A DNA stretch of 64,000 nt from Marsupella aquatica (GCA_973895155.1 OZ316899.1:4281241-4345240), one strand, 5' to 3'; shown: positions 18,702 through 52,486, counted from the first letter of the stretch. The notes: generated from the sequence alone by a model not told the origin. Made by a program: numbers and translations.

Positions 18702-18833
<132 letters not shown>

Positions 18834-20152: not shown

Positions 20153-22030
20153 TGTGACATCGCCAGCACGACGGTTAATGAGTGATCCGGTCTAATCCGT
20201 GCTTAGCGCGCGCGCTAAGGACATAGTAGTCCGTAATAATTAGCATAACGACACTAAAATAGGTAGTAACCATGACTAGGACATCATTAGTCAATAAGGA
20301 GCATTTACGCTTGGGCTAGCGGTGGAGCACCATTCGTACCCCGGGTCACAAGCGTGTAGGGATGCACCCTTTGGTCCGTATAATGAATCAAGGGGGCGGC
20401 TCACTGACATGCTCTGACCCGGACCTGCGGAGTGGCCGGTACACTGCAAGCGTGAAAGGATCGGCCTATCACAAGGAGGAAGGGACCGTTTGGCCAATGA
20501 GCCCTCAGGGTATAAAAGGCGGGCCATTCTCTTGTGAAGCACCACCACTTCACCCTTTGCGCCAGCTTCGATCCCAACTTACTTGTTTGCTCCTCAGTCA
20601 CCCACCCCCGTTCCCTATATGTCTGTCACGATTATGTCCAGTTCTGCCCTTTGATTTTGGCTTCAATTTCTATCCATCGGAAATCATTTAGTGAAGTCGC
20701 TGGCCGAGGTCAACCCGCGCCGATACAAAACCGAAAGGCAGTATAAATGACTCATCCGCTTAGCCGGGTGCTCTCACTATAACGGAGATTTTAGCCTCCC
20801 GTTCTAGAGCAAGCTCTATCGTCAACACTTCTTCGACGGCCCAAAGTACGGTGGTTTCCAGGAAGCCCTCCTTCGGCTTCCGGATAAGGTCTTCATACTC
20901 CCGGGCATGATCAACTTACAACGACACCACTTCAATCATATCCCCGCCAAAGTCTAGGCTTCCATAGACTATTAGTTTGGTACTGCAGCTACGGGCGAGA
21001 CATCTATCCTAACCTCACTCGGCTTCCCCTCAGACTTGCTGAATCATATGGCACCTCTTCCAGCTACAACCATCCAACTCATCGGTGCTCGCGCCAACAC
21101 CACCTTGGCCTCAGCCAAGCCGATCTCCACCACCGGTCGCACCACCCCTCCGGGTGTGATCCATGGCAAATTTGGTCAATATCAGTTCCGAAGACGAGGA
21201 AGCTCACCCTCCCCTGAACTGGTGACCTTGAGGTGCAAATCAGCATGCACCGGGCAACCCAACACCACTCACACAAGCCCGGGTGGATGACACGGTGACA
21301 ATAGCAGCCCCAACACCAGTGCTTAGGGCAGTAGCTCTGCTGCCGCCCAATAGAGAGGATGGGGAGATGTCCCCCTCTTCAAGTCACCTGAAGAACCAGT
21401 CTCGGGGTAGGAAGAGAAAGGAACCCGCAACCGTATCTAGGCTGCCTTTGGCCACGGTTGTGGTGGCCAAGCTGACCATGCATCGCATGGGGGAGAATGT
21501 CCACAAGAACATCCTCCACCCCAAGCATGCATGCTACTTGAAGACCCAAGGGTTTGATCACCTTGCCTCTCTTCCTTGGAATGGAAGCAGGTATTACGGG
21601 CAGGACATGATGGAGTTCATCCAGAACTTTGATGAAGCCCGCCAACAAACCCGAGCGCATGGGAGAGTGATGTCCCTCAATGAGGCACGTCTTAAGATGA
21701 TCTTCAGCCTACCCAAAGGAATAAATCGGGTGGAATCACGGGCTCCCTGCATTACTCTGGGGTAATGCCCTTAAGCTCGGGTGGATGACACGGTGACAAT
21801 AGAAGCCCTTAAGCCGGGGTTGATCCAACTATCGACTTAAGGTACGTTCCAAAAGTAGAACACAAACTATACCCATGACATTTCTATACAAAGGAATAGG
21901 CGCACTTAGTGCTAGATTATGGGAATAAGGTTCAGTTTGCACATCCCTCCTTGTTTGAACCCTCAAAACTAATGAAGATTATGCCCGTCTAAGCCAAAAT
22001 CCTCGCAAGGACAAAGCTTATGGCGTGACA
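20153..22030 (+). repeat. 5' LTR (family A) with ~2.1-kb internal deletion
   Basis: TGTGACA...CGTGACA; homology to other copies jumps from mid-ORF (21746) to the 3' part (about 21801). Confidence 0.88.
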
Positions 22031-22043
22031 TAGCCTTTGTTTT

Positions 22044-22061
22044 TGGCGCTAGATGGAGGGG
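22044..22061 (+). promoter_or_regulatory. PBS, tRNA-Asn type (TGGCGCTAGATGGAGGGG), 13 nt from the LTR
   Basis: Near-complement of the plant tRNA-Asn 3' end CCCUCCUUCUAGCGCCA (recalled); T-rich spacer as in Athila. Confidence 0.65.
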
Positions 22062-22867
22062 GTGTTCTACGTATAGTAGAATGGAGACATGTGCATATGT
22101 ACCTGATCACGGGACCTTGGGCCCCTGATAGTTGTTAATCATTGCATTTATAAGAGTAAATGCCCGTCACTTGTTCTCAAGTGGCGTACTTGAGGAGATT
22201 GACAAGCAAACAAGAGAGTGCAACCACAACAAGCTCCAAATATTTAGGCTCGGAGGACTCACAATTTCCTCAATAGATGAACATACCACCGGGACCTTCG
22301 GGATCCGGTCCAGCCGGTCCTGCTCTGGTACCTGCTGCACCACCACTAGCGCCACTGCCACCACCGGTACCCACGGCAGCAGCCCCTCCGGCTGTGGCTC
22401 GCATTGCCCAAGCTCCCCCACAAGTATCACAATGATCGCGGTTTCATTATCAACCTTTCAAAGGACGTCATGGGGACGATCCAAATGAATGGCTGGATGA
22501 GTTTGAAGCCACTGCTAAGGCCAACGGAGAGGATGCCATTAAGTTGACCATTCTCCCCGGAGTAATGCAAGGAGAAGCTTGTCCATGGTACAACTCGCTG
22601 CAGCCCGGGATCACATGGCCACAATTCCAAGCTGCGTTGCTACAAGAGTTTCGTGCCATTGGAGCGGAGCAGAGTTCCTTGTTGAAGATTGGTCAGCTTC
22701 GCATGGGAAAGGAGTCCTTGCAAAAAATTATTCAAAAGTTCCAGAAACTTGCTGCCAAGATCCGGCCTAGGCCAGGTGATGCGCTCTAGCTTACATGGTT
22801 TCTACATAGATTGCCCACAAATATGCAATTTTGGGTGCGCCAGAATAACCCAATTTCAATGCAAGCA

Positions 22868-25800
22868 TGTGATGCCTAGCCAGGAATCACTAGGCCAGTT
22901 AAGTGGGGAAAATGGAGGTGTACCCTATAAACACATTAGTATAGTAACAAAAACAAGGAAAATATAAACAATTAAGGGTGACTATGGAACCCGGGCTGAG
23001 GCCGGAGGTAAGGACGCCGGGGGAGAGAACACGATTAGGGTTAGGGTGCGCTAAGCATTGGCGGCTAGGGGTAACCAACGGGAGGAAAGACCAGAGGAGG
23101 AGAGGGGTAAGGACCGCTCGCGAGGAATGGTGGCTCATTTGCAAGCATGAACTGGGCAGACGACTACGAAAGGTCAACTACTGTCAGTTGCTTAGGCAAG
23201 CACTCTGGGCGGGAGCAGATACCAACGATCGAGTCAAGGAGGGTATGAGCAACGTCAATCAAGCGGCATATTTTTGGGGATGCCTGTTCAAACGGGCAAC
23301 TGAGTACATTAGGACTTACGAGGACGAAGAATCAGAGAGAGCAGCTCAAGAACGGCAGGAGCTCACTCAATTGTGGGAGCTGCAGAAGTCTGCCTTCTTA
23401 GGAGGAGAACTCATCAAGGCCGAGTTCTTGTGGACTCCTACTACCAATCAGCTCGATGACCTTCTATTTTGTGAAGACAGAATTGTCGGCATTCGGGAAG
23501 CCATCAACCGCTGCAACAACGCGCACTGGGAGTTGAAGGGTAGCACGGAGGGGTGGACAAAGGCAACTGTGCTAGGAGAAACATCCACGACAGCCGAGAT
23601 GAAGAGGAAAGGAAACAACAACAAAGAGGCCACCCCGGCAAAAAGAACGAGGTCGGCGGCACCAAGGAAGCTAGCAGAGCTGCAGCAGAACAGGAGACAG
23701 GGAGAAGCCGAAGAGGAGGAGGTCAATCCCATCAATGCCATTCCAACAAAGGATGACACCTGGAAAGGCTGGGCGGCGACCCTACTAGAGGAAGTGCAAT
23801 TACATTTTGCACGGGAGGAGGATGCATGCTTTACGGCCATGCAGACCAAGAAGTACCAGGGCTTCATGGCCGGATCTGGCTTGGAAGCCTTCGTAAGATT
23901 ACCATGGCTAAAGCCGGAGGTGCCGGACTCAGACTTATTAGAATTCGTGGGATCATGGGAACCCGAGACCAATTCCACGAGGGTGTATGGGAAGGATTTC
24001 TATCTCACTCCCCGGGTGATTGCCGAGGTGTTTGGCTTGCCCATGGGTAATAAGACCAAGGTTGATACTAGGAAGACCTTACCTGACAAGGAGTTCCGGT
24101 CGTTCCCAGGACCATCAACAAAGAATGGCTTCTTCCGGAACACCTGCACCAACCCGCACATCGGAGAGATGATCGATTTCTTGCGGGTGACCATGCATTG
24201 TAACTTTCCGAGGGCAGAGATCGGCAAGGCTCAGGTCTACCTGGCAGAAAGGCCAGACCCAAGCCAGGATTACAATGGGTACCTCCTCAACCAATTGAAG
24301 AAGATCTTGAAGGAGGAACAACAGGTGATCGACGTGGGAAGCGTGTCCCGGCTTGGCTATCACATGCCGCTGTTGTGCCGGTATGCCAGAAGTCAAATCT
24401 TTGCCCCAGTACTTCCCCTATTGGCAAGGGCACCGGAGGAGGTTCCGGAGCAGAGGCCAGCAATAGAAGAGCCCAACCAGCCTGCCAGTCCTACGATCGA
24501 GCAGGTGTTTTGGCCAAGGAAAGAAGACTTGCCGATGCAGCAATCAGGCATACAGAATCTGCTGAAAGTGCTGGAGAAGGAGAGAACGGCACCGGCAACG
24601 GCAACGGCACCGGTACAGGACACTGCCCCAGAGGCCGGCCTAAGCCGACTCAGGAGGGAAAACCCCTTTACCGGAGCCAACGAGAGAAGGAGGCCGGAAC
24701 ACAAGCCGGGAGTTCGAATGTATGTGGAAGCCTCAAGCCCCAAATTGGAGGCAGAGCAGCCTAAGGCTCCTTCCCCCAAAAAGCAAAGGGAGAGGACAGC
24801 CTGGAAACCAGAGGAGGAACTAGAGCCCGTGATCTGTGAGGCGGTTTTCACGGCATGACCAGGGGAACAGAGGGGGAAGCCGGGAGTCCAAGCAGTGGAG
24901 GAGGCGGTGGAGGACTACAGCAATGATAACTCCGGCTATGGGTCGGATCATCATGTTCCAGGAGTAAGGACCTGTGGCCGGTTTATCCCCACGTTTCCAA
25001 GAGTAGTTCGAGGGGACCCCACCCAGCAGAGTAGCCCCGAGTCTCCCCCACCAGAGGTTGCTCCACCGAGCTTTGACGGTATAAAGCAGACGACACAAGA
25101 TTTTCAGGAGCGACTTAGGGAGGAAGAGAAAGCAGCCCTAGCTAGGGAGAAAGATTTACCAGGAGGAGATTGGCCGGAGGACATCAGGCGGCTTGCCAAA
25201 AAAAGAAGCAACCCTCTTGCCACCGTAGAAGAAATCTGGAAGGCGGCTTGGGAACAGAGGCCAAGGTGGTTGATGCCGATGACTTCTACTTACTCCACCT
25301 ATGCTAAAGATAGAGCCATGGAGTACGGGGAGATGTGTGGGGACCTGGCGCTCAGCATCTTTGGGGAGGAGTTGGAGCAGGGACCTTTTTTCCAGAGGGA
25401 GATGTTGGAGAAGCACCGATTAGAAGAAGCGGTGGCTTTGGAGAGAAGCAAGAAGGACGAGGTCATCCGGAGGCTTAGGGAGATGGAAGTCAAGGTGAAA
25501 GACCTGCAGGCGGCCAAGAAAGCCCAAGATGAGCTACGGATTAAGCGACATGAGCTAAACATCATGCAAGGACAATTGGATGCCGCTCAATCTGGCAATC
25601 AGATTATCAAAGATAAACTAACTCGGACCCAAGGAGAGTTGGTCGGCGCGGTCAAGGACAGGGAAAAGTGGAAGCAGGAGCTGAGGGACGCATAGGAGGC
25701 CCACATAACCGCCAACAACCGGGCCATGGCGGAGACTCAGAGAAGGGAGAGGGCGTTGAAAGGAGAGCTCGAGGATATCTGCGGAGCCCTTGAGCAAAAG

Positions 25801-27579
25801 GAGGCCGAGTTAGGGAAATCCTATCAAGGGATTATTGCGCTGCAGCAGGAGCTTGTGTCCCTGATGGCCAACTTCAAGGCTGACCTGCGTGAGAAGGACA
25901 ACCAGCTTGACCAAACTTATGCCAAGATGAATAAGATGGAGTTTGAGTTCGTAGCGGAGCTCGACAAGGAGCTAAGAGCAACCCAGGAGGAGAGGGCTAC
26001 CTTAAAATTGGAATTGGAGGAAGCCAGAAAGGAGCTGCAGGAGGGACGGAAGGACCTGGAGGAAACCCAGGAGGAGTTGGAGGAAACCACCAGGAAGATG
26101 GAGAACTTACAGCGGCGGGCCAACAACCAAACGGAGCGGCTGAAGAAACAGGCCACAGTATTTAAGTGCTTTGCTTCATCTGGTCCAATTCCAATTGTGG
26201 GAACTCCGTTACCAGGAGAGGTACTGGCCGAAGGACAAGCCGAGACACACGCCCCGGTGCCGGAGGTAGGTAGCAAGGGGAAGGGACCAGCTACCAAAAC
26301 AGGGAAGAAGAAGAAGCGGAAACCTTCTGGGTCTGGGAGTTATACGGCTTACCAAGCCGTTGTGACCTAGGAGGTCAACCCGACACCAACCTCCGGCATG
26401 GTCACGGCAGTAGATCCACCTGTTGAAGAAGGTGGGGATGGCAAGGCCAAGGCCGGGACAGCTATTGATGAAGCCGAGGTACCAGATCCTCCACTAGAAC
26501 ATGTCGGGAAGGCCGAAGCCGTATCGAAGGCTGTGACCAATGCTGAGGCCAAAGCCGAGGGTGGACCTAGTCAAGCCGATAAAGAGTTGACTCGGTCCGG
26601 GGCAGGTAATCCATCAGAGGATGGACCGACGGTAGTGGCTGCGGGGGAAGCGTTGGGGGCGTCCATTGAGGATCCGCCACCGGTGTCGTGACGGTGCAAG
26701 GGCGCCGTTCCTTTTAGGAAGGGCGGACGTGGAAGTAGGAGGCGTGAGTGGGCAGGGCGGGTTCAGATCTCCAAGTTTAGGATTAGGATCAAGACCAGGA
26801 GACGGCCCTGACACTTAGATTAGTGGGATTGCGGATCCACTGGTAGGAGCAACACTTGTGCTCCTGCCTCGCTGTACAGTTAAGTAGATTACAGGTAGGA
26901 TAGATTAAGCTTACGCAGCAAAGTTCTGGACAGATCCGCTGCCAGGATAAATACCTGGGCAGCGGGGAGTCCAGGGCCTCTTCTTTAGCAAGTTTTTAGT
27001 TGCACCAGCAGGGCTGGGATCAAGTAGTAAGAGAAGCTCTCGGTTAGTTATACAGTGATCCTTGTGTATATTCATGTTTCCTCATGCCTAAGAACTGAAT
27101 AGAGTTGGCCTCACGGCTTAGTTCGCAGAGCTTGTGTATGAGATGTACTGTTTGTATGGCAAGTGCATGGTATAACTCAGTCAGAAGGAGTCATTTTGTT
27201 ATTTGTGTGTCGCATTAACTTGTGTGAAGAGTGCCCACATCAATGAAGGGAAGTAGCAAGGGAGTGAGAGTTGGATGTGTCGAGCTGAGAGAGGTCTTAG
27301 CGGCTTAACCAAGCCAATTGGGGATCATTCCAGCGGCGGAATCCAAACATACCTAATGGAAGACCAGGAGAGGAATACAAGGGAAGGCCTAAGTATCTCA
27401 TGACCCGATGAAGGATCTGTCCAGTATATGTGTGTAAAATGTTAATAGTAGTAGAAGGAGAGTTAGCAGCGTCCCATGCCGCTAAGCCACGGAAACGGCC
27501 TCGCCAAGGACAAAACCTGCGGGAATCGGCCTGAGCAAGGGGGTTTTCTTGGGTTTGGGGAGCCATGGGACGCACCACA
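22868..27579 (+). mobile_element. Solo-LTR-type element, family B (4,712 bp), containing a long ORF
   Basis: TGTGATGC...GCACCACA termini; perfect TSD AAGCA; no gag/pol, PBS or PPT of its own. Confidence 0.9.
22978..26691 (+). pseudogene. Family B LTR-encoded protein (1237 codons from 22978, or 1148 from ATG 23245; three in-frame stops)
   Basis: ORF pieces 22978, 24895, 25726 and 26398 share one frame, separated by single stops; C-terminal half is a long predicted coiled coil. Confidence 0.88.
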
Positions 27580-28696
27580 AAGCAGCCATAGCGTGCGCCC
27601 AAACATACAAGGAATCCACCTATAACTCCCGACAAAGCCAACGGCCACGACATAAGAGGAGCAAGTATGAGACCTTCAGTGACACTGACTCTGAATCTGA
27701 CGACAAGAAGAAGAAGAAGCGTAAGAAGAAGAAGAAACATTGTTTGACCTTGTCCAGTCTGGAGACAGGGTCTAGTTTGGATTCAACTTTGACTAGTGGC
27801 TCCTCCCCCTCAAACTCATTGGGTAGTGATTCGGAGAGCAAGACCCGGAGCAAGAAGAAGAAGCGGCGTGCTAAGAAGGAGGAGAAAATCAAACCCCGTG
27901 TTCAAAGAAGGATACCAGATCCTAAGGCCGCTGAAACAGACAAGCTCAACAAAATCACTGATCGCCTCAAAGCATTGTCGGTACATCTTGCGAAGAAGCC
28001 TATGGAGAAGAAGAAGCCATACAAAACCTGAGCTTCAAATGTTTCCAATCGGGGCATGTTATGCAGGAATGCCCGAGATGGAAGAATCGAGTCCATCAGG
28101 TGGAACTAGATGATGTTGACAGCCCAAGCCCAAAACCAGAGTCCAGGGAGTACTTCTTCAAGAACCCCCTGACTCCGTGTATCAGATATCGACGGTGGGT
28201 CCTCAGAAATTGGCTGGCAAAACTGCGTATCCATACCCAAATGGTGGCTGAGGCTTCCAAGTGATAAGTAACCCGACCATTCCTCCTAAACCAGGGATTT
28301 GGCAATCTCTGGTTTGTTACAATTGTGAGAAGCCCGGTCACTTTGCAAGGGAATGCACGGAACAAAGACAACAAGGAGATGGCCGAGGCATGCCACTATG
28401 TCAAGTTTGCAAAATGAAGGCCCATTCCACGGCTAATTGCCCATTGGTGATCGCTGCACGAGCAAGCGCGGCTAGGTTGGCCCCACGTGGACCAGCTCCG
28501 AGCAATGCAGTCATGCAAATGATCACTGTAGAATGGCAAGATGATAACACCAAGTGGGTAAACTTGGTCGATGTAACGGAACACCCAATCCGTCGGATGA
28601 GGCCGAATGTTATCGTGTGTCAACCAGATCCGAACAAAAGCAAGAGAAGCAAGAAGAGAAACGTTGCAGGGAACCAAGACACCACGCCAGTGCAGC

Positions 28697-31600
28697 TGTG
28701 GTGCGTCCCATGGCTCCCTAAACCCAAGAAACCCCCCAGCTCAAGCCGATTCCCGCAGGTTTCGCGCTTGGCGAGGCCGTTTCCGCGGCTTAGCGGCATG
28801 GGACGCTGCTAACCTTCTTCTACTACTACTATTAACATTTACACACATATACTGGACAGATCCTTCATCGGGTCATGAGATACGTAGCCGGCCTAATCTA
28901 GGCCTTCCCCTGTCTTCCCCTCCGTCTTGTTAGGTATGTTTGGATTCCGCCGCCGGAATGATCCCCAATAGGCTTGGTTAAGCCGCTAAGACCTCTCTCA
29001 GCTCGACACATCAAACTCTCACTCCCCTGCTTACTTTCCTTCCTCTATTAGTTGATGTGGGCACTCTTCACACAAGTTAATGCGACACACAAATAGCAAA
29101 ATGACTCCTTCTGACTGAGTCATACCATGCACTTGCCATACAAACAGTACATCTCATACACAAGTTCTGCGAACTAAGCCGTGAGGCCAACTCTATTCAG
29201 CTCTTAGGCATGAGGAAACATGAATATACACAAGGGTCTCTGTATGACTAACCGAGAGCTTCTCTTACTACTTGATCCCAGCCCGGCTGGTGCAAACTAA
29301 AAACTTGCTAAAGAAGAGGCCCTCAGCTCCCCGCTGCCCAGGTACTTATCCTGGTAGTGGATCCGCCTAATTCTTTGCAGCGTAAGCCTAATCTACCTAA
29401 CAGTAATCTACTTGCCCGGATCTACCTATGTACAGCAAGGCAGGAGCACAAGTGTTGCTCCTACCAGTGGAACCGCAATCCCACTAAGCTAAGTGTCAGG
29501 GCCGCTCCTGGTCCTGATCCTAATCCTAAACTTGGAGATCAGCGCCCGCCCTGCCCACTCACGCCTCCTCCCTCCACGTCCGCCCTTCCTAAAAGGAACG
29601 GCGCCCTTGCACCATCACGACACCGGTGGTGGATCCTTAATGGACGCCCCCAACGTTTCCTCCTCAGCCACTGCTATAGGTTCGTTCTCTGACAGATTAC
29701 CTGCCCTTGACTGAGTCAACTCTCCATCGGCCTGACTGGGTCCACCATCGGCGTCGGCATCGGCTCGGAAATCGGTTACGGCCTCAGCCTCGGCTACGGT
29801 CTCCCCGGCCTGCTCAAGAGGAGGATCTGGGATACCGGCCTCATTATTGAGTAGTTCGGCTTGGGCCGCACCATCCCCACCCTTGATGATAGCGGAATCT
29901 ATTGTCGTATTCATGCCGGAGGTTGGTGCTGGGTCTACCTCCTTGGTTACCACGGCCTGTGGAGTCGGATTACTCCTTGACCCTGAAGGTTTCCGCTTCT
30001 TCTTCTTTTCTGGTTCGGCAGCTGGTCCCTTCCCCTTCCCACTTACTTCCGGCACTGGTGCAGGTGGCGCGGATTTTTCTTCGGCCAGTACCACTCTTGG
30101 TAACTTGGTTGCTCCAATTGGAGTTGGGCCTGATGAAGACAAGCACTTAAATATTGCGGCTTGTTTCTTCAGCCGCTCCGTTTGGTTGTCGGCCCGCCGC
30201 TGAAGGTTCTCCATCTTCCTCGTGATTTCCTCCAACTCCTCCTGGGTCTCATCCAGGTCCTTGCACGCCTCCTCTAGTTCCTTCTGGGCTTCCTCCCGTT
30301 CTTTCTTCAAGGTAGCCCTCTCCTCCCGGGTTGCTCTTAGCTCTTTGTCGAGCTCTGCAATGATGACAGACTCCATCTGATTCATCTTGGCGTAAGTCTG
30401 ATCGAGCATCTCGTCCTTCTCCCTTAGGTCGGCCTTGAAGCTGGCCGTCAGGGACGCAAGCTCCTACTGCAGCGCCATAATCCCTTGATAGGATTTTCCT
30501 AACTCGACCTCCTTCTGCTCAAGGGCTCCGCGGATTTTCTCGAGCTCCCCCTTCAACGCCCATTCCTTTCTTTGGGTCTCCGCCATGGCCCGGCTGTTGG
30601 CTGTTATGTGGGCCTCCTATGTATTCCTCAGCTCTCGCTTCCACTTCTCCCTCTCTTTGATCGTATCGGCCAACTCTCCCTGCGTCTGAGTCAGTTTATC
30701 CTTGATATTCTGATTATCAGCCTGCGCGGTGTCCAACTGCCCCTGCATGATGTTCAGCTCATGCCGTTTAATCCGCAGTTCATCTTGGGCTTTCTTGGCC
30801 GCCCTTAGATCTTCAATCTTGGCTTCCATCCTCCTAAGCCGCCGAATGACCTCGTCCTTCTTGCTTCTCTCTAACGCCACCGCTTCTTCTAATTGGTGCT
30901 TCTCCAACTGCTCCCTATGGAAAAAGGGTCCTACCTCCAACTCCTCTCCAAAGATGCCGAGCGCAAGTTCCCCACACATCTCACCATACTCCATGGCTCT
31001 ATTCTTAGCATAGGTGGAGTAAGTAGAAGTGATCGGCATCGCCCATCGCGGCCTGTGCTCCCAAGCCGTCTTGCGGATCTCTTCAATCGTGGCTAGAGGT
31101 TTGCTTCCTTTTTCGGCTAGCCGCCTGATGTCCTCCGGCCAATCTCCTCTTGGTAAATCCTTTTCCCTAGCCAGGGCTGCCTCCTCTTCCTGCCTGATTC
31201 GCTCCTAAAATTCATGCGCCGTCTGTTTTATGCCGTCAAAGCTCGGGGGAGCAACATCTGGTGGGGGAGACTCAGGGCTACTCTGTTGGTTGGGGTCCCC
31301 TCATACTACCCTTGGAAGTGTGGGGACAAACCGGCCACAGGTCCTTACTCCTGGAACGTGATGGTCCGACCCATAGCCGGACTTATCATGGCTGAAGTCC
31401 TCCACTGCCTCCTCTTCCTCTTGGACGTCCGGCTTTTCCCTCTCCTCTTCGTCGGTAGGAGCTTCAGGCAATTCTGCCTCAGATTCAGAGCTTGAGACTC
31501 CCACATACATTCGAACACCTGGCTTGGATTCCGGCCTGATTCTCTCCTCGTCTCCAGCAAAGGGGTTTTCTCTTGTGAGCCGGTGTAGGCCTACCTCTGG

Positions 31601-38100: not shown

Positions 38101-39095
38101 CTCTGTTGGATCAGGTCCAGCTACTCAAGCAGGATGCCAACAGGCTCAGGAGGCAACGAGATAGCCGCTCCCACTCGGGCGGCTCTGGCAAGCGTGCTAG
38201 GCATTAGTGGCGGAGTAGGATTCAAATAGAGTTAGGAGTAGCTAAATCGGGCTATAGGGACAAGCGCCTGCCCTAGTTAAAGCGCTGTTGCCATACTGTC
38301 CAGCCTGCGTAGATTAGAATCTTCTAATAAGACAAGCCATTTTCCGGCCTGACAACCAACTTAGTTAGGATCTTAGTTAGTGAATATTCTGGCTCAAGGC
38401 CACTCCGGTCCTCGGCCCTTAGTATTTAGTGCACCCCTTGGTAGAGGCAAGGGGGGTTTTTAGTCTCAGAGTTGGACATCCGCGGTATGTGCGGGGAGTC
38501 CCGACCTCTGTGAGTGAAAGAGTACCAAGGGGAGGGGGTAGGACTAAGCTCGCTGGGCAAGTACGGAGCCAGGCTCCATTGTAGTGTACACCCTCGACCT
38601 TGGACCTGTTCATTCAAGAGCTTTCGGGTCAACTAAGTGTTCGTGTATGTCCCCTATGTAGTAAAATCCTTTCCCATTATTTCCTTCGTGTAAATCAAGA
38701 TTGTATGCTTGTGTGTGTGTATATGTGTGAATCTCGTGTATGGGTGCCAACGCTTGGCCGAACGCACTACCCAAGCCGTGCACGGGGTGCAGCTTGCGGG
38801 TAAGTGGTTGCGAGCACGGGTTGAGTGACGGTATCATTGAATCCGGATCAAAGGCGGACAACACAAAGGCTTAGAAGCCCGTAAGCCAGGGTCGATCCCG
38901 CTATCGACTAAGGTACGTTCCGGCGGCGGAACACAAACCATACTTAGGGCGTAAGTAATAGTAGATGCACTTAGCGCTAGTTTACGTGAGTTATGTGCAT
39001 TTTGTGCTTCCCTCCCTGCCCAAACCCTCATATTTACAAAGGATGTGCCTGTCTTAGCCAAAGCCCGAGTTAAGGCCTAGGCTGACGACGTGACA
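35146..39095 (+). mobile_element. Solo LTR, family A (3,950 bp), inserted in the RT of its own family
   Basis: TGTGACA...CGTGACA termini; perfect TSD AGGCT. Confidence 0.93.
35607..38207 (+). pseudogene. Family A LTR-encoded protein (866 codons, one frame, in-frame stops; longest open part 36168-37817, 549 aa)
   Basis: ORF pieces 35607, 36168 and 37872 share a frame; colinear with 12096-14771. Confidence 0.88.
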
Positions 39096-43599: not shown

Positions 43600-43755
43600 G
43601 AGTGAGTTTTTGATCCAGGTGGGGAGTTTTTGATCCAGGCAGGGAATTTCTTGAGTTTGGAGTATCGTTGATCCAGACGGGGATTTCTCAAGTTTGGAGT
43701 CTTGTCAATCCAGGCGAGGATTTCTCGAGTTTGGAGCCTTGTTGGTCCAGGCCCG
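43600..43755 (+). repeat. ~36-bp tandem repeat array inside the LTR (also about 50365-50515)
   Basis: Units of the form GATCCAGGC..GGA.TTCTCGAGTTTGGAG.. repeated about four times, with shorter units upstream. Confidence 0.7.
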
Positions 43756-44086
43756 AGTTCCGTGCGAGCTGTTTTAGACTAGTGGAGTAGCTAGTCAAGT
43801 TTTTGGTTTTGTGAGCTAAGGAGGATAGTTTTCCCGTCAGATTTTGAGTAGTTAGTCACTCGAGGAGTTCTACTCGACAAGTTAGAGGTAGCGGCCCGCC
43901 GTAGGGCCAGCTACCAGACTCTTGTAGGCAAGCTTACTCGAGGGCACCTATTGTAACCTTTATGAGAAAAGTAAAAAATATAAAGGAGTGAGAGTTTGCT
44001 CTGAAAAGTGCTTGTCACCTGTCCCAATTGCAGCCAGAAACGCGTAGTTTGCCCAAGGAGCCCCTAACTTTAAGTCCTTGTGACAT

Positions 44087-44108
44087 TGGCGACCATACTG
44101 GGGAGTCC
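44087..44108 (+). promoter_or_regulatory. PBS, probably tRNA-Arg type (TGGCGACCATACTGGGGAGTCC)
   Basis: One base after the LTR end; resembles the complement of a tRNA-Arg(UCG) 3' end (recalled, imperfect). Confidence 0.5.
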
Positions 44109-44126
44109 TTGGGGCGATTGGATGAG

Positions 44127-46554
44127 ATGGGTGACTATGACAAAGTCGATCGGATATTGAGCATCGTCATGTCAATAATGAGAACCATAAGGAAGGAAGA
44201 GCTTGAGTCGGAAAGGGCAAACAGGGAAGCGAATAGAACTACTCGGTGTCTCTAAGAGGTTTTGAAGGACAATGGGCAGTTCGATGGGAGAAATGTGACA
44301 AGCTACCTTAAGTCTTACTTGATAGAAGCAGCTGTCTACAAGTTGGACAAAGGGACAGCCGTGAAAGAGTTCATGGTGCTGGTTGAGAAGGAGTTGAGTT
44401 CGACGGTGCAGACCATCGTTGAGTCAACTGAGGGCTGGGATGACTTCGACCAGAAGATGAAAGAGGAGTTCCAAGCGGAGGATGCTGATCGGGTCACGTA
44501 GGCTACCTTCTTGGATTGGGTGAATGACAGGAACAAGAAGCTGAACGGGCCGCAAGAGCTCCTAAGGGAGTTCAAGAGAAGGGTGTCTCAGTTACCAAAG
44601 TGGGATGTGGGAATCATCGAGTTGCAACGCTCAACGCTCTTCTTGAGGGCAGCTGATGAGGACCTTCGAGATGAGCTTGAGAACGCGATGGAGCTGCTGG
44701 AACCTTCGAGAGTTACCTTGTCTAACGACTGGAACCAAGTTGAGAAGGTGGTGTTGAAAGTGAGCAATCAACACCGGCGGCGATAGCTAGACAAGGAGGC
44801 TACCACTCTCAACCTAAGGCCGCCGGAACCGATATTGAGGAAAGGGAAGCAAGAACCAGCAAAGGATGAGATCAAACCATCGGTGGATGATCTCGCAAAA
44901 ATGATGCAAAACCTGAAGATCTTGGCGGCACATGCGGTCGAGAATCCAAAACCGAGGGTTGCGAGTGCTCCCGAGAGGAAGCGAGAAGATGCAGAGTTGA
45001 CCATGCATGTGGTGCGATAGCAAAGAGCATGAAAAATGGGAGTGCCTGGACCTGAGGGAAGCTGCGGATAAAGGGCTGATCAAGTTCATCGGTGAAGTTG
45101 GTTAGAAAAAGATATCGTTTGCCGATACTGAGGAGCCGATTCCATTCAACTCCAACAAGGGAGGCATGAAGGCTTTGGCTGAGAAGCAAGTTGGGAAGCA
45201 AGTCAAAGAGGCGTCCTCTTCGCACCTGGAAGCAAATTTTTACAATGTGGAGTTGGATGGCCCCATGACGGAAACAGACAAGTTTTACAAGCGCTTGGCG
45301 GATCTGGTGCGAGAGAGATCCGGATGGAGTGACCCGATGTTGATCAATGCAATAACGGTTGAGGTTGGGGCTAGTTGGGATGCCTTGGTCAAGTCAAAAA
45401 GGAAGAAAACCGACGAGGATGACACTCCGTCTCAATCAGGGGAACGAGAGAGGCGGGATACGTGAGACAAGGAAAGGAGGGTTAGGTTCGAAGAAGAGGA
45501 AATGAGCGAGAAAGAGCCAGAGAAAGGGAAACCGATCAGGAAGGACCCAGGCTGGGTGCTTGGCAGGGACGTGGACCAGACCATGTACCCGGAGGTTGTA
45601 GCTGAGAAGTTCTAGAGCCAACAAGCTCAAGGGTTTACCAATGCCGAGTTCTTTGGCAGTATGAGGCGGGAGATCCAGGAAGCGATCTTGGAGAGATCCA
45701 AGAGGAAACGGATTTACAAAGAGGGCCCTCACACCTTGATGGGGGAGGCTGGCGAGACAGAAATTGGGAGTTTCCGAACTTACACTGCTGGGGTGTCCAT
45801 GGGTTCAGGTAGTAAGCTTGCTGGCCCCGAAGAGTCAGACTTGGGGGAACCAAAGAGGGTCAAGTCCCTTGAAGAGGAGCTCATGAACTTGGACGATGAG
45901 TTCTTCGATGCGGAAGAGGAGCTCATGGGAACCGGAAGCGAAGCTGAGTCTGTGGCAAACAGGGACCCGACCAAAGGGGGAGAACGGGAAAGCATTACCG
46001 CGCAGTCGAGGACCATTCATGTCATGGGCTCAATGAAAGGAAACGGTTATGCTTACCGAGATGGATATTGGGCTCGAGCAAGTCCAGAGAGCGAGTGCCA
46101 ATTGGAAGGAATGGAAGGCAAGGTGCGGGCGCTCATTGATACTGGCTCGGAGATCAACTTGATGGATCCAAAGGTGTTTCAAAAGGGGAATTGGCCGGTG
46201 GACAATGAGTTGCTTTGAAGTGTGAACTCGGTGAGTTCAATGAAGGACTATCTTTGGGGCGGATGTCCGAATGTGATGGTGAAGTTCGGGAATGTCAAGC
46301 AGGCTTGTAACATTTTTGTTCATGAGCACTTGTCATTTCCGGTGATACTAGGCATGTCGTTCATCACTGAATGGAGGATGGAGACGAAGGTTCTGGATGA
46401 TACTACCTTCATGGTGAAGGTTTGGAGCAAAGATGGGAAAGAGGTGGTTCAATTTCCGGCTGTTTTACCTGGAAATGAGAGGAATAGGAAAGGGTTGAGG
46501 ATTGAGAGTGCCGACTCTGGTCCAGGTCCGGAAAATGACTTGGCACTTTGCTGA
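44127..46554 (+). pseudogene. gag: gag (CCHC knuckle) and protease of the fungal-type gypsy, decayed
   Basis: FDGRNVTSYL; CMWCDSKEHEKWEC near 45003 after a frameshift; ALIDTGSEINLM; multiple stops. Confidence 0.8.
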
Positions 46555-49500
46555 AAAGAGTGGATCGGCGGAGTGCTCGTTCCTTACCTCCTTGTGAAGG
46601 GGAAAACACGATGGATAATGGAGAGGAAGAGCCACTCGAATGTGCGGAGTCTAACCTGGGAAGGGACAAGCTAGAGAAGGAGTTGGAAAGGCAGTACTCG
46701 TCTATGGCCGTGCTTGTATACTTGAGTACCAAATACAAGACGGTCGACAAGAAAGTTAGGCCGGCGGCGATACCTTTTCCAGACGATGCGATGGAGGTTA
46801 TGGATCGAGCAAGATTGGAACCAAGGCTGAGGCCAACTGATCGGATAGGGCATAAGTTTACTCAAGAGAGTTTGGCAAAGATGAAGATTGGTTTGGATGG
46901 GTTACTTACAGAGGTGGAGCAAGTGGCATTTCAAAAACTGATAATGGAGCATGGCAAGGCATTCTTGTTTTCGATTGAGGAGATTGGTTGTGCAAATCCA
47001 AGTAAGGTGACACCGATGGTCATCTTTACTGTCCCTCATGTTCCGTGGGATCTGAAACCAATTTTGGTTCCGCGGGCTTTAGCTCCAAAGCTTGCAGAAC
47101 TGCTTAAGGAGAAGCTGAGTGCTAGGATTCTCGAGAGGTCTGATGCTCCCTACTCGAACAGATGGTTTACGATGAGAAAGAAGAATGGAAGCTTGAGGTT
47201 CATTCAGGATATGCAACCTCCGAACAAGGTGACCATCAGGAATGTGGGAGTTGGGCCACTCGTGGATGAGTTTGCGGAGGAGTTCGCTGGGAGGGCGATC
47301 TACTCCATGGGTGATTTGTTTTTGGGTTACGACCAGTTCCAGTTGGCGCAAGAGAGCCGAGACATTACGACTATGAGGACCCCGTTGGGCCTCTTGAGGA
47401 TGTGCACTCTTCCTCAAGGGACGACGAACTCAGTTGCGCACATGCAAAATGCGATGAGTAAAATCTTGGAGCCATTCATTCCGGAAAAAGCGAGACCGTT
47501 CATTGATGATGTCCCAATAAAGGGGTGCTTGGCGAAAGGGAAGGATGAGACCTTGAGGAGTGATGGGATCTGGCAGTTTGTGTGGGATCACATTGCGGAT
47601 GTTAAGGCGGTTCTCGAGAAGCTGATTGGTGTGGGAGTCACTCTTTCGGGGGAGAAGTCTGAATTCGGGATGAAAGAGGTGAAAGTCGTTGGGCAAATGT
47701 GCGGATCCTATGGAAGGAAGCTGGACATGGATAAGGTGAGAGCTATTAGCAAGATGAAGGATTGCGAATCGGTGCCAGAAGTTTGGAGGTTTCTGGGTGC
47801 CTGTGTCTTTTACAAGATCTGGATCCCTCACTTCTCACACCTGGCGGACCCGCTCTATGAGCTGTTGAGGAAAAAGGTTAAGTGGAGATGGCTACCCAAG
47901 CATAGTGAAGCAATGGCTAAGCTTAAGAGCGCTCTCATGAGCCTGCCAGTTCTCCGAGCTGCGGACTATGAGAGCGGGCAACCACTGATCATGACTGTTG
48001 ATGCGAGTTCGTTCGCAGCCGGGTGGGCTATTGGGCAAGATGACGAGAATGGGGAAAGGTATGCAATCAGATTTGGGGAAAAAAAATTTATGGAAAGGCA
48101 AAGGAGATATGCCCAAGTTAAGAGGGAGCTTTGGGGTGCCAAGGTGGCACTCCATCAGGAGAGGAACTATTTGATTGGGGCGCCAGTGGTGGTTGAGACT
48201 GATTGCCAATCGCTGCTGGGGATGATTACGAATTGTGACACTTATAACATAGCCATACTCAGGTGTATCGCTTTCATTCGGATGTTCAACCCTGAGCTAA
48301 GTCACATTGCGGGAAAGGATAATCCGGTTGCCGACATGCTGTCAAGGGCGAGATTCAGAAATGAGGTAGCAACTAGAGTTGGCGAGGTGACCGGAACCAA
48401 AAGTGTTGGAAGTCTAGAGTTCAAGGAAGAACTCTACTCGGGAGAGTTGTTGGATATCGGGCGTTACATTAGCACTTTGGAGAAGCAACCAGAGTGGAGT
48501 TACCAGGAGTTTGTCAAGATCCGGAAGAGATCTTACAAGTTCCTATTGAGGGAGGGCTACTTGTGGCGAAGGCATAAGGACCCAAGTCAGTTGTTGCAGA
48601 GGGTTGTGGATACTAAGGATGAGAAAGACCAAATTCTCAAAGAGAGCCATGATGCTGACATGGCTGGGCAAAACAGGGTGCATTCGACTTACGAGAGGGT
48701 TCAGAAGCTGTACTGGTGGCCAGGTTTATACTTGGCCGTTCGAGACTATGTCGAGACTTGCGAGATTTTCCAGTTTTACTCGAGGATCCGACATAGGGAT
48801 GGATTGGTTCCGACTTATCCCGTGCCTCTACACTTTCAATGGGCTGTTGATGTGGTGTACATGCCGAGAGAGAGGAATGGGGCGAGATACTTGGTTTTGG
48901 CGAGAGAAGACTTGTCTTCTTATGTGGAAGGGAGAGCGTTGGTTTCGAACACTACTGCTGCCATTTGCCAGTTCATACTTGAGGATATCATTGCAAGGCA
49001 TGGGTGCTTTACAAGGATCAGGGCTGATAGGGGGGAGCTCAGCTCCAAGGAAGTGCAAGAGTTTTTCGACCAATATTGCATCAAACTGAAGCTGACTTCG
49101 AGTTACAATCCGGAAGGCAATGGGAAATCTGAAAGGGGGCACATCCAGATTGTGGGCGCTTTGGCTAAGGCTTGTGATGGGGACTTGTGCAGGTGGTTGA
49201 GTCTCTTTCCACTTGCTCTGTTAGCGGATCAAATGACTTGTAGCTCAGTGACCGGATACGTTCCGGCTGAGCTACTTACTAGGCACTTGCCGATGATGCC
49301 ACTCGAGGAAGATGTTTGCAGCTGGCGACTGATCGGATGGAAAGATGAAGTTTTGAGAGAGGAGTTGCTGGCTCGAAGGATCAAACACTTCAACTTGTTA
49401 CCCGCAAAGATTGAGGTGGCTCGGAAGCAATTGAAGATGGCGAGGTTAAGGAACAAGGGCAAGTTTGACAGGACTCATCGATTGAGGCCTATCTTGGTTA

Positions 49501-49949
49501 AGGAACGGGATTGGGTTCTGGTTTACGAAAATAAGTTGGACAAGCAACACTTGAGCCGAAACAAGTTTGCTCGGAGGTGGCAAGGTCCGTATGTGGTGGT
49601 TGCTATTCATGCAAATGCAACCTACACTATTCGGGAGTTGGATGGAACAGTTCACCAAGTACCTTACGCAGGGAAAAGGGTGAAGATCTTCAAGAGGAGG
49701 ACCGAGAAGGGAATGGACTCAAGTTCCGACTTGAGTGAATTTGAAGACGAGGCACTGGTCAAGGCGCATCCGTTGGGCTTGAGTTTCAAAAGTGGCTTGA
49801 CTGGTTCTGATTCGGATGAGTTGGACTTTGAGTTTCTGGAAAGTGGAGTACTTAAGGCCGAGTCTGAAGGCTTTGGGTTTGAGTTTCTTGAGGAGGAAGT
49901 GGTCCAAGCGCATGGCTCGAGTTTGGACTCAGACTTAGAGGAAATCTGA
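46548..49949 (+). CDS. pol: Uninterrupted pol ORF (1133 aa): RT, RNase H, integrase, acidic tail
   Basis: FIDD (RT), TVDASSFAAGW (RH), H..H..C..C zinc finger, WAVDVV...DRGE...NPEGNGKSE (INT), WQGPY; no start of its own (frameshift from the protease frame). Confidence 0.9.
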   Translation: MLKRVDRRSARSLPPCEGENTMDNGEEEPLECAESNLGRDKLEKELERQYSSMAVLVYLSTKYKTVDKKVRPAAIPFPDDAMEVMDRARLEPRLRPTDRIGHKFTQESLAKMKIGLDGLLTEVEQVAFQKLIMEHGKAFLFSIEEIGCANPSKVTPMVIFTVPHVPWDLKPILVPRALAPKLAELLKEKLSARILERSDAPYSNRWFTMRKKNGSLRFIQDMQPPNKVTIRNVGVGPLVDEFAEEFAGRAIYSMGDLFLGYDQFQLAQESRDITTMRTPLGLLRMCTLPQGTTNSVAHMQNAMSKILEPFIPEKARPFIDDVPIKGCLAKGKDETLRSDGIWQFVWDHIADVKAVLEKLIGVGVTLSGEKSEFGMKEVKVVGQMCGSYGRKLDMDKVRAISKMKDCESVPEVWRFLGACVFYKIWIPHFSHLADPLYELLRKKVKWRWLPKHSEAMAKLKSALMSLPVLRAADYESGQPLIMTVDASSFAAGWAIGQDDENGERYAIRFGEKKFMERQRRYAQVKRELWGAKVALHQERNYLIGAPVVVETDCQSLLGMITNCDTYNIAILRCIAFIRMFNPELSHIAGKDNPVADMLSRARFRNEVATRVGEVTGTKSVGSLEFKEELYSGELLDIGRYISTLEKQPEWSYQEFVKIRKRSYKFLLREGYLWRRHKDPSQLLQRVVDTKDEKDQILKESHDADMAGQNRVHSTYERVQKLYWWPGLYLAVRDYVETCEIFQFYSRIRHRDGLVPTYPVPLHFQWAVDVVYMPRERNGARYLVLAREDLSSYVEGRALVSNTTAAICQFILEDIIARHGCFTRIRADRGELSSKEVQEFFDQYCIKLKLTSSYNPEGNGKSERGHIQIVGALAKACDGDLCRWLSLFPLALLADQMTCSSVTGYVPAELLTRHLPMMPLEEDVCSWRLIGWKDEVLREELLARRIKHFNLLPAKIEVARKQLKMARLRNKGKFDRTHRLRPILVKERDWVLVYENKLDKQHLSRNKFARRWQGPYVVVAIHANATYTIRELDGTVHQVPYAGKRVKIFKRRTEKGMDSSSDLSEFEDEALVKAHPLGLSFKSGLTGSDSDELDFEFLESGVLKAESEGFGFEFLEEEVVQAHGSSLDSDLEEI

Positions 49950-52486
49950 TCCATTGGAGCAGACCGGAGGCTGCTCAGGTTTACTGGGGGAGGATGTTTT
50001 GCCGAAAGATTTCGGCTCAAGAATGGCTTTTATAGGGGATGATGGGCAAGGCCTCCCGGTTGGGTTGCGTGCATGCTAACTTGGAGGGGCTGCTTGGTTG
50101 GATGGATTGAGGTTTGGTGATTGGGTGACTCGTCGTCACCAGGTTTGGTGTTTGGGTGAGTCACCAGGCTTGGAGTTTGGATGAGCCTCGCTGCTGGCAG
50201 TTGGCTCAGGCTGGATGGTTGGGTTTCCGATGCTACTTAAGACTTGAGCCTCGGCTCATTGAGGTTGGCGGTTATCTATTGAGATCTGTTGAGTTGCGCT
50301 CTGTGAGTTCCGCTCCATTCTGCGGAACTCAACTGTTGTGCGACGGTTTTGGAGTTTTGAGTGAGTTTTCGATCCAGGTGGGGAGTTTTTGATCCAGGCG
50401 GGGAACTTCTCGAGTCTGGAGTCTCGTTGATCCAGGCGGGGATTTCTCAACTTTGGAGTCTTGTCAATCCAGGCGAGGATTTCTTGAGTTTGGAGCCTTG
50501 TTGGTCCAGGCCCGAGTTCCGTGCAAGCTGTTCTAGACTAGTAGAGTAGCTAGTCGAGTTTTTGGTTTTGTGAGCTAAGGAGGATAGTTTTTCCGTCAGA
50601 TTTTGAGTAGTTAGTCACTCGAGGAGTTCTACTTGACAAGTTAGAGGTAGCGGCCCGCCGTAGGGCTAGCTACCAGACTCTTGCGGGCAAGCTTACTCGA
50701 GGGCATCTATTGTAACCTTTGTGAGAAAAGTAAAAAATATAAAGGAGTGAGAGTTCGCTCTGAAAAGTGCTTGTCACCTGTCTCAATCGTAGCCAGAAAT
50801 GCGTAGTTTTCCCGAGGAGCCCCTAACTTCAAGTCCTTGCGACACCGGCCTAGGAAGTGGGCGTCCTTCTTTGCCAAGAAGTTTTACGAGGAGATGGAGC
50901 GGAGAAGGAAGACTTTGTACCTCAGCGGGAAGGCGTACTTTGCTAGCCACATCAAAATAATCATCGAGTGGTATGCCCGTTTTGACCGCCAAAGCCTCCC
51001 TTGTATCAAGGAGCCTGAGCTGACCCCATTGCAATGGGTATTCTTGGCCCAGGAGAGGCGACCTCAGCCTGAGGCCCAAAGTCTGGCGGCCGTGAGACCT
51101 ACTACCCCGGCCCCGCAATCAGCCCGGGAGACCAAACTCCAACTGCTGTGGCCTCAGGTAGCGGCCACTGAAGATCAGGTGGCCAAAGCTAGGATCCGAG
51201 CAGCCTTGGCAAAGCAAGCCGGAGCCAGGAAGGACGCCGAGATCGCACGGCTCCGAACCCAGATTGAAGGTTTGAAGGGACAAGCCGTCATCTGGCAAAA
51301 GGACGTGGAGGAGGCCGACGCTCAGGCCCAGTGGGACACAGCCAAGATAGACTTCCTAAAGGCAGAAGTGGCACGGCTTCAAGGAGAAGCCACAAAGTAG
51401 GCCCAATTGGTGGACAAGCTGACAAGCGACGTCTAGCAACTGAAAGAGGCATGCCAGGAAGCCGCGGAGGAGACAGACTCGACAAAGCGAGAGAACAAAT
51501 CTCTGCTGGACCAGGTCTAGCTCCTCAAGTAGGATGCCGACCGGCTCAAAAGGCAGCGGGATGGCCGCTCCAAGCCCAACTCTGGCGGATCTAGTAAGCG
51601 TGCCAGACATTAGCAACGGGATAGGTTTAGGATAGAGTTAGGAATAGGATAGTCAGACGATAAGGACAAGCGCCGAAACTAGTTAGCGACACTGTCCTAT
51701 CCAACCAACCTTTGTAGTTAGAATCTTAGAATAAGACACGCCATTTTACAGCTTGACAGTTAGAAGAGTTTAGAATCTGGGATAGCTTAGATTTGAGCAC
51801 GTGGTCGGTCCGGACCCTGGCTCTTAGTATTTAGTGCACCCCCGGTAGAGGCGGGGGGGATTTTAGTTTTAGAACCGGGTATCCGCAGGATGTGCGGGGA
51901 GTCCCGACCTTTGTGAGTAAAAGATACCAAGGAGGGAGGGTACAACTAAGCTCGTTGGGTGAATGCGGAGCCGGGCTCCATTGTAGTGTACGTCGCTCTG
52001 CCATTGGGCCTGTTTACTCAAGAGATGTCGGGTCAACCGTGTACATGTGTACGACGGATTCTGAAGTAAAGTCTGTTCCCACCATTTTCTTTGTGTAAAC
52101 CGAGGTTGTATGTGTGTGAGTTCCGTTGCATGTATGAATCTTGTATATGGGTCGAGAATGCTTGGCCAAACGCATTATCCGAGCCGTGCAAGGGGTGTAG
52201 GCTATGGATAGTGGTTGCAAGTCCGAGTTGGATACCCGTATTATCGGATCCGGATCGGAGGCGGACAGTACAAAGGCTTAGAAGCCCTTAAGCCGGGGTC
52301 GATCCAACTATCGACTTAAGGTACATTCCGGCGGCATTTCTATACGAAGGAATAGGCGCACTTAGCGCTAGATTACGGGAATAAGGTTCAGTTTGCACAT
52401 CCCTCCTTGCCCGAACCCTCAAAACTAAGGAAGATTATGCCCGTCTAAGCCAAAATCCGCACAAGGACAAAGCTTATGGCATGACA

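Follow-up and report, generated by a model that had tools for sequence, protein, structure and literature searches.

A selected gene inside the long terminal repeats of a degenerate Ty3/gypsy element of Marsupella aquatica, with a predicted VANC21-like fold

Introduction

How does a long gene come to lie inside the long terminal repeats (LTRs) of a retrotransposon, and what might it do there? The question is raised by a stretch of Marsupella aquatica DNA (GCA_973895155.1 OZ316899.1:4281241-4345240), the whole 64,000 nt of which are here called the window, with coordinates counted from its start. Within it a degenerate copy of a Ty3/gypsy element of ~14 kb, the focal element at 20153-52486, is bounded by two copies of a ~3.95 kb repeat, family A, and is interrupted by solo copies of this repeat and of a second one, family B. 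Both repeats contain a long open reading frame (ORF), referred to below as the LTR gene. We favour a reading in which the A LTR carries a gene of ~866 codons that has been maintained by selection, is transcribed from the TATA box of the LTR itself, sits in the R/U5 part of the LTR and encodes a protein with a fold like the DUF1985/plant mobile domain (PMD) of VANC21; taken jointly these statements are probably correct, with considerable room for error.

Family A is an LTR

Four copies of family A (A1 to A4, Table 1) are found by self-comparison of the window, all in the same orientation, beginning with TGTGAC and ending with GTGACA or ATGACA. A2 and A4 are the LTRs of the focal element; they are mutually the closest of the A copies (K 0.083) and one ACCAG duplication spans the whole element. 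A1 and A3 are solo LTRs, because each has its own flanking duplication. Family A is a genuine LTR of ~3.95 kb, and the focal element is a degenerate Ty3/gypsy copy. An initial annotation had described the family A units as true LTRs, with a primer-binding site (PBS) at 22044, a polypurine tract (PPT) at 41422 and a single ACCAG target-site duplication, and on all these points it was right: the units have TG..CA ends, ACCAG stands on both sides, the solo copies have duplications of their own, a PBS-like sequence begins 13 nt after the 5' LTR and a purine run adjoins the 3' LTR.

Both priming sites are weak in form, the PBS having a long spacer and the PPT being short. The PBS-like site reads TGGCGCTAGATGGAGG, also cited as TGGCGCTAGATGG, and is a putative match to the 3' end of tRNA-Asn, with 17/18 positions agreeing. 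A tRNA scan found no tRNA gene in the window, and a literature search with the PBS 10-mer turned up unrelated primers only.

It could be argued that A and B are not LTRs at all, but independent gene-carrying mobile units that flank gag-pol by chance, given that the majority of copies in the window are unpaired (A1, A3, B1, B2) and that no family B internal region is seen there. Chance flanking is hard to reconcile with the close relationship of A2 and A4, with a duplication that spans the element, with a PBS-like site directly after A2 and a PPT before A4, and with TG..CA ends and 5-bp duplications of the kind that the solo LTRs have, and we consider it barely credible.

The LTR gene and its conservation

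The gene is best seen in A3, where it runs from LTR position 462 to 3062 and is followed by 888 nt, with a central domain at 36462-37154 and a coiled coil at the C-terminus. The two other frames of this region have a dozen or more stops each in A1 and A3. The tail behind the stop codon is 888 nt long in both A and B LTRs, and in family A it is the best conserved part of the LTR, A3 differing from A1 by 23% there and by 32% in the ORF. Most of the gene in A2 has been removed by the ~2.1 kb deletion. The products of the A and B genes share the central domain of ~200 residues with 23-25% identity (blastp E 1e-14, 5e-13) and both end in a coiled coil; 31 columns of the domain are invariant across the five aligned window copies. 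From their sequences, the A and B LTR genes are paralogues. A long ORF within the LTR, with a conserved central block, had already been reported in the initial annotation and is borne out, the ORF having 866-891 codons in A and 1148 in B, and the block EF..G..FGLP being invariant in 5/5 copies.

Selection was assessed from the ratio of nonsynonymous to synonymous divergence (dN/dS, Nei-Gojobori) in the true frame and in the two shifted frames. Between A3 and A1 (837 codons) the ratio is 0.22 in frame, against 0.91 and 1.36 in the shifted frames, and family B behaves likewise, with 0.20 in frame and 1.06 and 1.51 shifted for B1 and B3 (697 codons), and 0.26 in frame and 0.96 and 1.50 shifted for B1 and B2 (1110 codons). 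Shorter pairs give 0.14 (A2 vs A3), 0.27 (A4 vs A3) and 0.16 (A1 vs A2). Both LTR genes evolved under purifying selection.

Homologues were sought with a profile of the domain among 1.84 billion representative proteins, which gave 76 proteins at E<=0.001, 25 at E<=1e-10 and two at E<=1e-30, one of these two being a repetitive protein of 3328 residues that was set aside. The homologues are open proteins of 400-900 residues and those with names are from liverworts; organism names were found on 4 of the 10 homologue clusters looked up, three being Calypogeia fissa and one Riccia sorocarpa. One open homologue of 906 residues (P0087) aligns to A3 over 35643-38201 in a single frame with an E-value of 2e-78. 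A word-based protein search with the LTR ORF gave no match at E<=0.001, and no fused, very long forms were seen among proteins of 1587-4530 residues, for which word-based search and alignment are weak evidence. Two weak domain homologues (P0056 and P0057, E ~3e-5), one of them named Riccia, have sub-threshold matches to DDE_Tnp_4, a Harbinger-type transposase, and the domain of the LTR gene may also travel with DNA transposons.

The family is also abundant in two DNA-type runs, since A3-like contig pieces at least 85% alike number 4322 and 4944 in them. The first in-frame stop of A3 is replaced by another letter in every covering contig, 9/9 in X1 and 5/5 in X2; the check covers this first stop, the other three falling outside the rows shown.

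These data bear on the possibility that the ORF has no present function and is the decaying fragment of a captured host or transposon gene. The 3-4 in-frame stops or the deletions carried by the window copies would fit such a history, as would the lack of a Pfam family match and the finding that none of the runs listed as containing 35146-43235 is an RNA run, those listed being two of unrecorded kind from one study. A decaying fragment would not be expected to have, in two families, a dN/dS that is low in the true frame alone, nor to stay free of frameshifts over 866-1148 codons in dead copies that differ by 14-32%, and it does not account for open homologues of up to 906 residues elsewhere or for a first A3 stop that is absent from all covering contigs. 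We think it very unlikely that the gene is such a remnant.

Promoter signals and the place of the gene in the LTR

Where the gene lies with regard to U3, R and U5 determines how it might be expressed. The A3 LTR has a single TATA[AT]A[AT] sequence, at LTR position 356 (35501-35507), which is common to A1, A2 and A3 and has one substitution in A4. The ATG at LTR position 462 is kept in 4/4 A copies, 106 nt downstream of the TATA box, and no other ATG occurs in the 80 nt before it. In the alignment of the four A copies there is no conserved TATA box downstream of the ORF. An AATAA lies 120 nt past the A3 stop and is common to A4. In family B a TATAAA is kept in 3/3 copies near LTR position 97, with the ATG at 378. 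Since the only TATA box is upstream of the ORF, the LTR gene is predicted to be part of R, or of U5 should a poly(A) site come before it, rather than of U3.

In their non-coding tails the A1, A3 and A4 LTRs have an identical block of 14 nt (CCCTTAGTATTTAG, at 38416-38427 in A3), which loosely resembles the published VANC21 motif YAGTATTAY.

The initial annotation had explained the position of the ORF in another way, namely that a sense ORF of the Athila type originally separated pol from the PPT, until the site of plus-strand priming moved upstream and this region became part of U3. On this view the genomic RNA would contain the ORF at its 3' end only, and expression would proceed through an RNA that is spliced or starts internally. 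Pol does end 66 nt before the LTR with no internal extra ORF behind it, chromodomain and extra RNase H are both absent, as in Athila, 47% of the Athila elements in REXdb carry an extra ORF in their 3' part, and a purine tract (AAGGGGAGGGGG) kept in A1, A3 and A4, ~320 nt past the stop, could be a relic PPT. A relic PPT 3' of the ORF had in fact been anticipated, and whilst a conserved tract is indeed there, runs of at least 10 purines occur 5-6 times in each full-length A LTR (A1, A3), such that a relic among them is not significant. The absence of a conserved TATA box behind the ORF also speaks against a shift, and the recent shift in family A that it supposes is unneeded, as the divergent family B has the same layout. 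The annotation had itself named an ORF in R/U5 rather than U3 as evidence against the shift, and the TATA box and conserved ATG at the head of the ORF predict R/U5. Nor was the supposed resemblance to the Athila ORF family confirmed, there being no match to PF03078, the marker of Athila 3' ORFs, and the fold match being to the DUF1985/PMD of VANC21. We regard the priming shift as a distinctly improbable origin of the arrangement.

If the gene is in R/U5 as we propose, another route is available. A gene inserted in R/U5 of a 5' LTR, or in U3 of a 3' LTR, would be copied to both LTRs in the next cycle. The copying of an insert from one LTR to the other is a consequence of the established scheme of reverse transcription, and therefore no shift of the PPT or of the priming site is required. 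The arrangement is old and not a recent change in family A, because the divergent family B, the gene of which is 23-25% identical, has the same layout.

The predicted fold of the central domain

An AlphaFold2 model of the A3 domain, built on 44 aligned sequences, has a predicted local distance difference test (pLDDT) score of 89.7 and a predicted template modelling (pTM) score of 0.85. When this model was compared with the PDB by Foldseek the top match was 9lnj_A, VANC21 on its target DNA, with an E-value of 0.029, a probability of 0.97 and a template modelling (TM) score of 0.52, the next match having an E-value of 1.3; the search covers folds that Foldseek is able to detect. VIA-align superposed 206 residues of the two (model 1-220 on chain 294-560) with a Z of 8.3, a root-mean-square deviation of 4.1 and 11% identity, and 9lnj_A was the sole chain among 128 with Z>=2.

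The model of the full homologue P0087 has a pLDDT of 61.6 overall and >90 in the domain, and its top match is again 9lnj_A (E 0.037), although the two models share most of their alignment and are not fully independent. At its N-terminus P0087 has a helical module (7-120), which a disordered linker joins to the domain (325-525); another linker leads on to helices at 694-884. Language-model searches with the domain led to clusters of DUF1985 (0.86) and of PMD (0.85, in 14% of members), which are leads only. A profile of the domain run against PDB sequences returned coiled-coil noise only, and VANC21 was missed by sequence. The central domain is predicted, with moderate strength, to fold like the DUF1985/plant mobile domain of VANC21.

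A whole-ORF language-model search had also offered Transposase_28 (0.84, a lead only), which found no support in Pfam. Sub-threshold Pfam matches were to Transposase_32 (E 0.006, in one of 25 proteins), to DUF6935 (E 0.0079, in one of 25) and to coiled-coil families.

What the protein would do, and points against it

If the reading given at the outset is correct, every LTR, solo ones included, would be a unit of promoter and ORF. The protein, with its predicted coiled coil of ~190 residues, would bind the DNA of its own family as an oligomer, and by analogy with VANC and MAIN/MAIL1 it would modulate the silencing of that family. A more ambitious version may also be considered, in which every single LTR amounts to a complete gene for an anti-silencing factor that is VANC-like and sequence-specific, and the gene family branched off early within the plant mobile domain, from which host MAIN/MAIL and transposon VANC arose later; this we would hold only tentatively, and think unlikely as it stands.

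A number of observations weigh against the reading. Pfam gave no family above noise for the five domain copies (at E<=10) or for the three window ORFs and 22 homologues (at E<=1), and in the same searches PMD (PF10536), DUF1985 (PF09331), ATHILA (PF03078) and Transposase_28 were without a match. The Foldseek E-values are weak (0.03) and a Z of 8.3 is near a level that unrelated models can reach. No short motif is over-represented in the non-coding parts of the LTRs, the best 5-mer (CTAAG) occurring 10 times against a shuffle maximum of 10. The transcription start site, the poly(A) site and the borders of U3, R and U5 are placed by sequence signals alone, an R of ~3 kb would be unusually long, the A3 LTR has no AATAAA, and the family B leader between TATAAA and ATG contains upstream ATGs. 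None of the four A copies in the window is intact, and the dN/dS of 0.52 between A2 and A4, the two LTRs of one element (145 codons), is below the 1 expected under neutral decay.

Lineage of the element

The interior of the focal element offers few domains by which to place it. In pol, Pfam finds RVT_1, RT_RNaseH, Integrase_H2C2 and rve only, with neither a chromodomain nor an additional RNase H (aRH) in the polyprotein; RT_RNaseH and the zinc finger of the integrase are only ~100 residues apart, and there is nothing behind the integrase. Relatives of the region from RNase H to integrase (RH-INT) number 167 at E<=1e-10, and among the 120 of these that were counted PF00385 is found in none and PF13456 or PF00075 in six, all with 31-35% identity. 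The closest named matches among those listed are liverwort proteins with 46-62% identity. The element is a non-chromovirus Ty3/gypsy element without extra RNase H, and the Tat lineages (Ogre, Retand, TatI-III) are excluded on sequence grounds because their defining aRH domain is absent.

The reverse transcriptase (RT) box of the focal element is LEIFIDDFAIFG. Close unnamed and liverwort relatives have F(I/L/M)DDF, angiosperm sequences without aRH have VFMDDFSVYG and those with aRH have VYVDDMIVKS; FMDDF is typical of Athila. Two RH-INT trees were made, one of 51 of 107 rows, comprising all named and every third unnamed sequence, from which the dropping of rows with <230 aligned residues removed all aRH rows, and one of 33 hand-chosen rows that include six aRH rows and three outgroups. 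In both, the focal element groups with sequences that are either unnamed or from liverworts (clade support 100/100), and the angiosperm sequences without aRH stand outside this clade; the deep nodes toward those angiosperm sequences and toward Tat-like ones have no support, in trees built without REXdb references. The nested element in A4 is very distant from the focal element on the RH-INT tree.

The REXdb supplement gives for Athila 5-bp duplications, a PBS for tRNA-Asp (72%) or tRNA-Asn (12%), no extra domain and lengths of 7.3-22.8 kb, with PF03078 in sense ORFs of the 3' part; the duplications of Phygy and Selgy are of 4 bp. The focal element resembles Athila in having no chromodomain or aRH, in its 5-bp duplications, in its length of ~14 kb, in an F-x-DDF RT box and in a sense accessory gene that ends in a coiled coil. 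It differs in the place of this gene, which is within the LTR instead of behind pol and ahead of the PPT, and in the lack of a match to PF03078. The assignment to Athila made in the initial annotation agrees with the missing chromodomain and aRH and does not agree with the lack of an internal extra ORF with PF03078, so that Athila proper is no more than a candidate placement.

Comparison with known systems

Accessory genes in LTRs have precedents outside plants, in that sag of mouse mammary tumour virus lies in U3 and nef of human immunodeficiency virus overlaps U3, their proteins being wholly or partly LTR-encoded. These ORFs are in U3, upstream of the promoter, whereas the present ORF is downstream of the only TATA box.

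The VANC proteins of VANDAL elements, which are Mutator-like, provide the only structural match (PDB 9LNJ), which covers 206 of 220 modelled residues. VANC too is an accessory protein encoded by a transposon and has variable regions, and a coiled coil is reported for VANC21 in the accessible part of PMC13547354. VANC, which has the domains DUF1985 and DUF287, binds to short motifs in non-coding parts of the VANDAL that encodes it, causing methylation to be lost, as far as the available text of PMC5735166 goes. The likeness has its limits, as identity is 11%, Pfam does not detect DUF1985 in the LTR gene, no array of motifs was found in the LTRs here, and VANC is described as dicot-specific in the portion of PMC13547354 consulted, whereas the LTR gene belongs to an LTR retrotransposon and its closest named relatives are from liverworts. 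VANC DUF1985 and the PMD-C of host MAIN/MAIL1 share a fold, according to excerpts of PMC13547354 and bioRxiv 10.1101/2024.09.27.615353.

PMDs also occur in Gypsy elements (PMC5418596, in extract; REXdb supplement), and the same extract of PMC5418596 has PMD-A encoded by angiosperm Gypsy elements and states that the origin of the domain is open. The PMD ORF of Ogre has antisense orientation and is found in the 3' part of the internal region (431/434 matches, REXdb supplement), whereas here the ORF is sense and inside the LTR, and PF10536 does not match it.

Rice Retrosat2, going by the sections of PMC3485330 available, is similar in having LTRs of >3.2 kb, an extra ORF of a family that is unknown, and, in silico, a U3 of 244 bp with a TATA near the start of the LTR and an R of ~2 kb. 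It differs in that its ORF0 is internal, upstream of gag-pol, that those sections report no LTR ORF, and that it groups with RIRE3/RIRE8.

Structure of the focal element and family B

The initial annotation had spoken of a complete gag-pol, which needs correction, as the interior is cut by three solo LTRs and has several stops and frameshifts besides. This is evident from the closest polyprotein (P0088; 1954 residues, 65% identity in RH-INT), which is collinear with four interior pieces (Table 1), the three gaps in the alignment being the insertions B1, B2 and A3. B1 splits gag, B2 lies between gag and protease, and A3 splits RT within the SGYNQ motif, RT continuing from LDEYSG before it to YNQMWI after it. 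Without the three solo LTRs the interior is 6057 bp and encodes gag with a CCHC zinc knuckle, protease, RT, RNase H and integrase only. RVSYDRVKKY is encoded at 41338-41367, 66 nt ahead of the 3' LTR, the P0088 alignment ends at 41379 with the LTR starting at 41434, and the stop of the pol frame is at 41473-41475 within A4. It was thus correctly noted at the outset that pol ends at the PPT, and by the P0088 alignment pol of the focal element is not followed by an extra ORF ahead of the 3' LTR.

Table 1. Features of the focal element, of the family A and B repeats and of their genes, in window coordinates
Feature	Position	Strand	Remarks
A1	11631-15616	+	solo LTR, 3986 bp; duplication ACCAT/ACCAC, 4/5 matching
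A1 LTR gene	12096-14771	+	891 codons, 4 in-frame stops
Target-site duplication ACCAG, left	20148-20152	.	flanks A2
A2, focal 5' LTR	20153-22030	+	~2.1 kb internal deletion at 21747/21800
PBS-like TGGCGCTAGATGGAGGGGG	22044-22062	+	13 nt past A2
gag, N-terminal part (capsid)	22424-22864	+	P0088 residues 62-211
B1	22868-27579	+	solo LTR, 4712 bp, TG..CA; duplication AAGCA/AAGCA; inserted in gag
B1 LTR gene	23245-26691	+	from ATG, 1148 codons, 3 in-frame stops
gag, middle and C-terminal part, CCHC zinc knuckle	27636-28631	+	P0088 residues 366-578 on 28037-28631
B2	28697-33365	-	solo LTR, 4669 bp; duplication GCTGC/GCTGC
Protease (VDGGAG) and N-terminal half of RT	33376-35145	+	ends LDEYSG; P0088 residues 611-1187 on 33376-35144
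A3	35146-39095	+	solo LTR, 3950 bp; duplication AGGCT/AGGCT; inserted in RT; most complete A copy
A3 LTR gene	35607-38207	+	conserved ATG, 866 codons, 4 in-frame stops, no frameshift; stop 38205-38207
C-terminal half of RT, RNase H, integrase	39097-41472	+	P0088 residues 1187-1954 on 39097-41379
Short polypurine tract AGTAGGGAG	41422-41430	+	followed by CTA, i.e. 3 nt before A4
A4, focal 3' LTR	41434-52486	+	pieces 41434-43235 and 50845-52486; ~0.5 kb internal deletion
Nested Ty3/gypsy element in A4	43236-50844	+	~850 bp LTRs, K 0.057; 1136-codon pol ORF
Target-site duplication ACCAG, right	52487-52491	.	flanks A4
B3	55804-58322	+	truncated third B copy, 74% identity to B1; cut at 58322 by other repeats

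B1 and B2 are solo LTRs of the second family, of ~4.7 kb. They start with TGTGATGCC and end with CGCACCACA, are 86% identical (p 0.141) and contain no internal terminal repeats in the self-comparison of the window. One frame at 22948-26688 (1247 codons, 3 stops) had been considered as an ORF ahead of gag of the Retrosat2 or Ogre kind. It belongs to B1, and the pre-gag reading is rejected because P0088 and a metagenome locus that carries a relative of it (L001) show that gag is split, and because B1 and B2 have TG..CA ends and duplications. That locus has no LTR upstream of gag, so that it gave no comparison with a sister LTR; an ORF at its positions 1965-2237 lies directly upstream of the gag-pol relative with no LTR between, and presumably resembles the small zinc-ribbon elongation factor ELOF1.

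A third or sister element at 55804-64000 was likewise ruled out, the region being a truncated B LTR (B3) followed by unrelated repeats. The part after B3 (58332-64000) has a Ty3 capsid ORF at 59289-60116 and the start of an RT at 60458-61300. Direct repeats at 61512-62343 and 63169-64000 are 90% identical, and 61526-63073 matches 363-1889 at the other end of the window in inverted orientation, with repeats also across 35-1889.

Other features of the window

The nested element in A4 is younger (K 0.057) than its host element (K 0.083), with an uninterrupted RT-RH-INT ORF and an (A)CCGG duplication. Further upstream, a Ty1/copia element contains a perfect tandem duplication of 2025 bp (2011-6059, 99.95% identity) that duplicates gag (Retrotran_gag_2 at 3646-4041 and 5670-6119), and is either very recent or an artefact of assembly. 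The DNA at 16000-20000, between A1 and A2, is AT-rich, with a GC content of 38-42% and a CpG observed/expected ratio of 0.23. The repeats are less depleted in CpG than this adjoining non-repeat DNA, since the ratio is 0.69 in A3 and 0.60 in B1.

Significance

The REXdb survey and a 2020 review treat the extra ORFs of plant LTR retrotransposons as internal, and among the papers listed by a search for phrases that place an ORF in or within an LTR there was no plant paper, the coverage of the search stopping short of bioRxiv supplements. What appears to be new is an accessory gene of a Ty3/gypsy element that lies inside the LTR, has a predicted VANC/PMD-like fold and has its closest named relatives in liverworts. 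For annotation this means that such LTRs are not non-coding, and that solo LTRs keep the predicted unit of promoter and gene.

As a retrotransposon gene it is, moreover, a candidate counterpart of the anti-silencing system based on VANC. It also touches on a question that is open according to Ikeda et al. 2017, namely whether transposons or host genes were the origin of the plant mobile domain; their survey was of angiosperms, whereas the named homologues here are from liverworts. Should the more ambitious version outlined above be true, a protein able to keep its own family free of methylation could potentially be made from thousands of LTRs, the solo copies among them.

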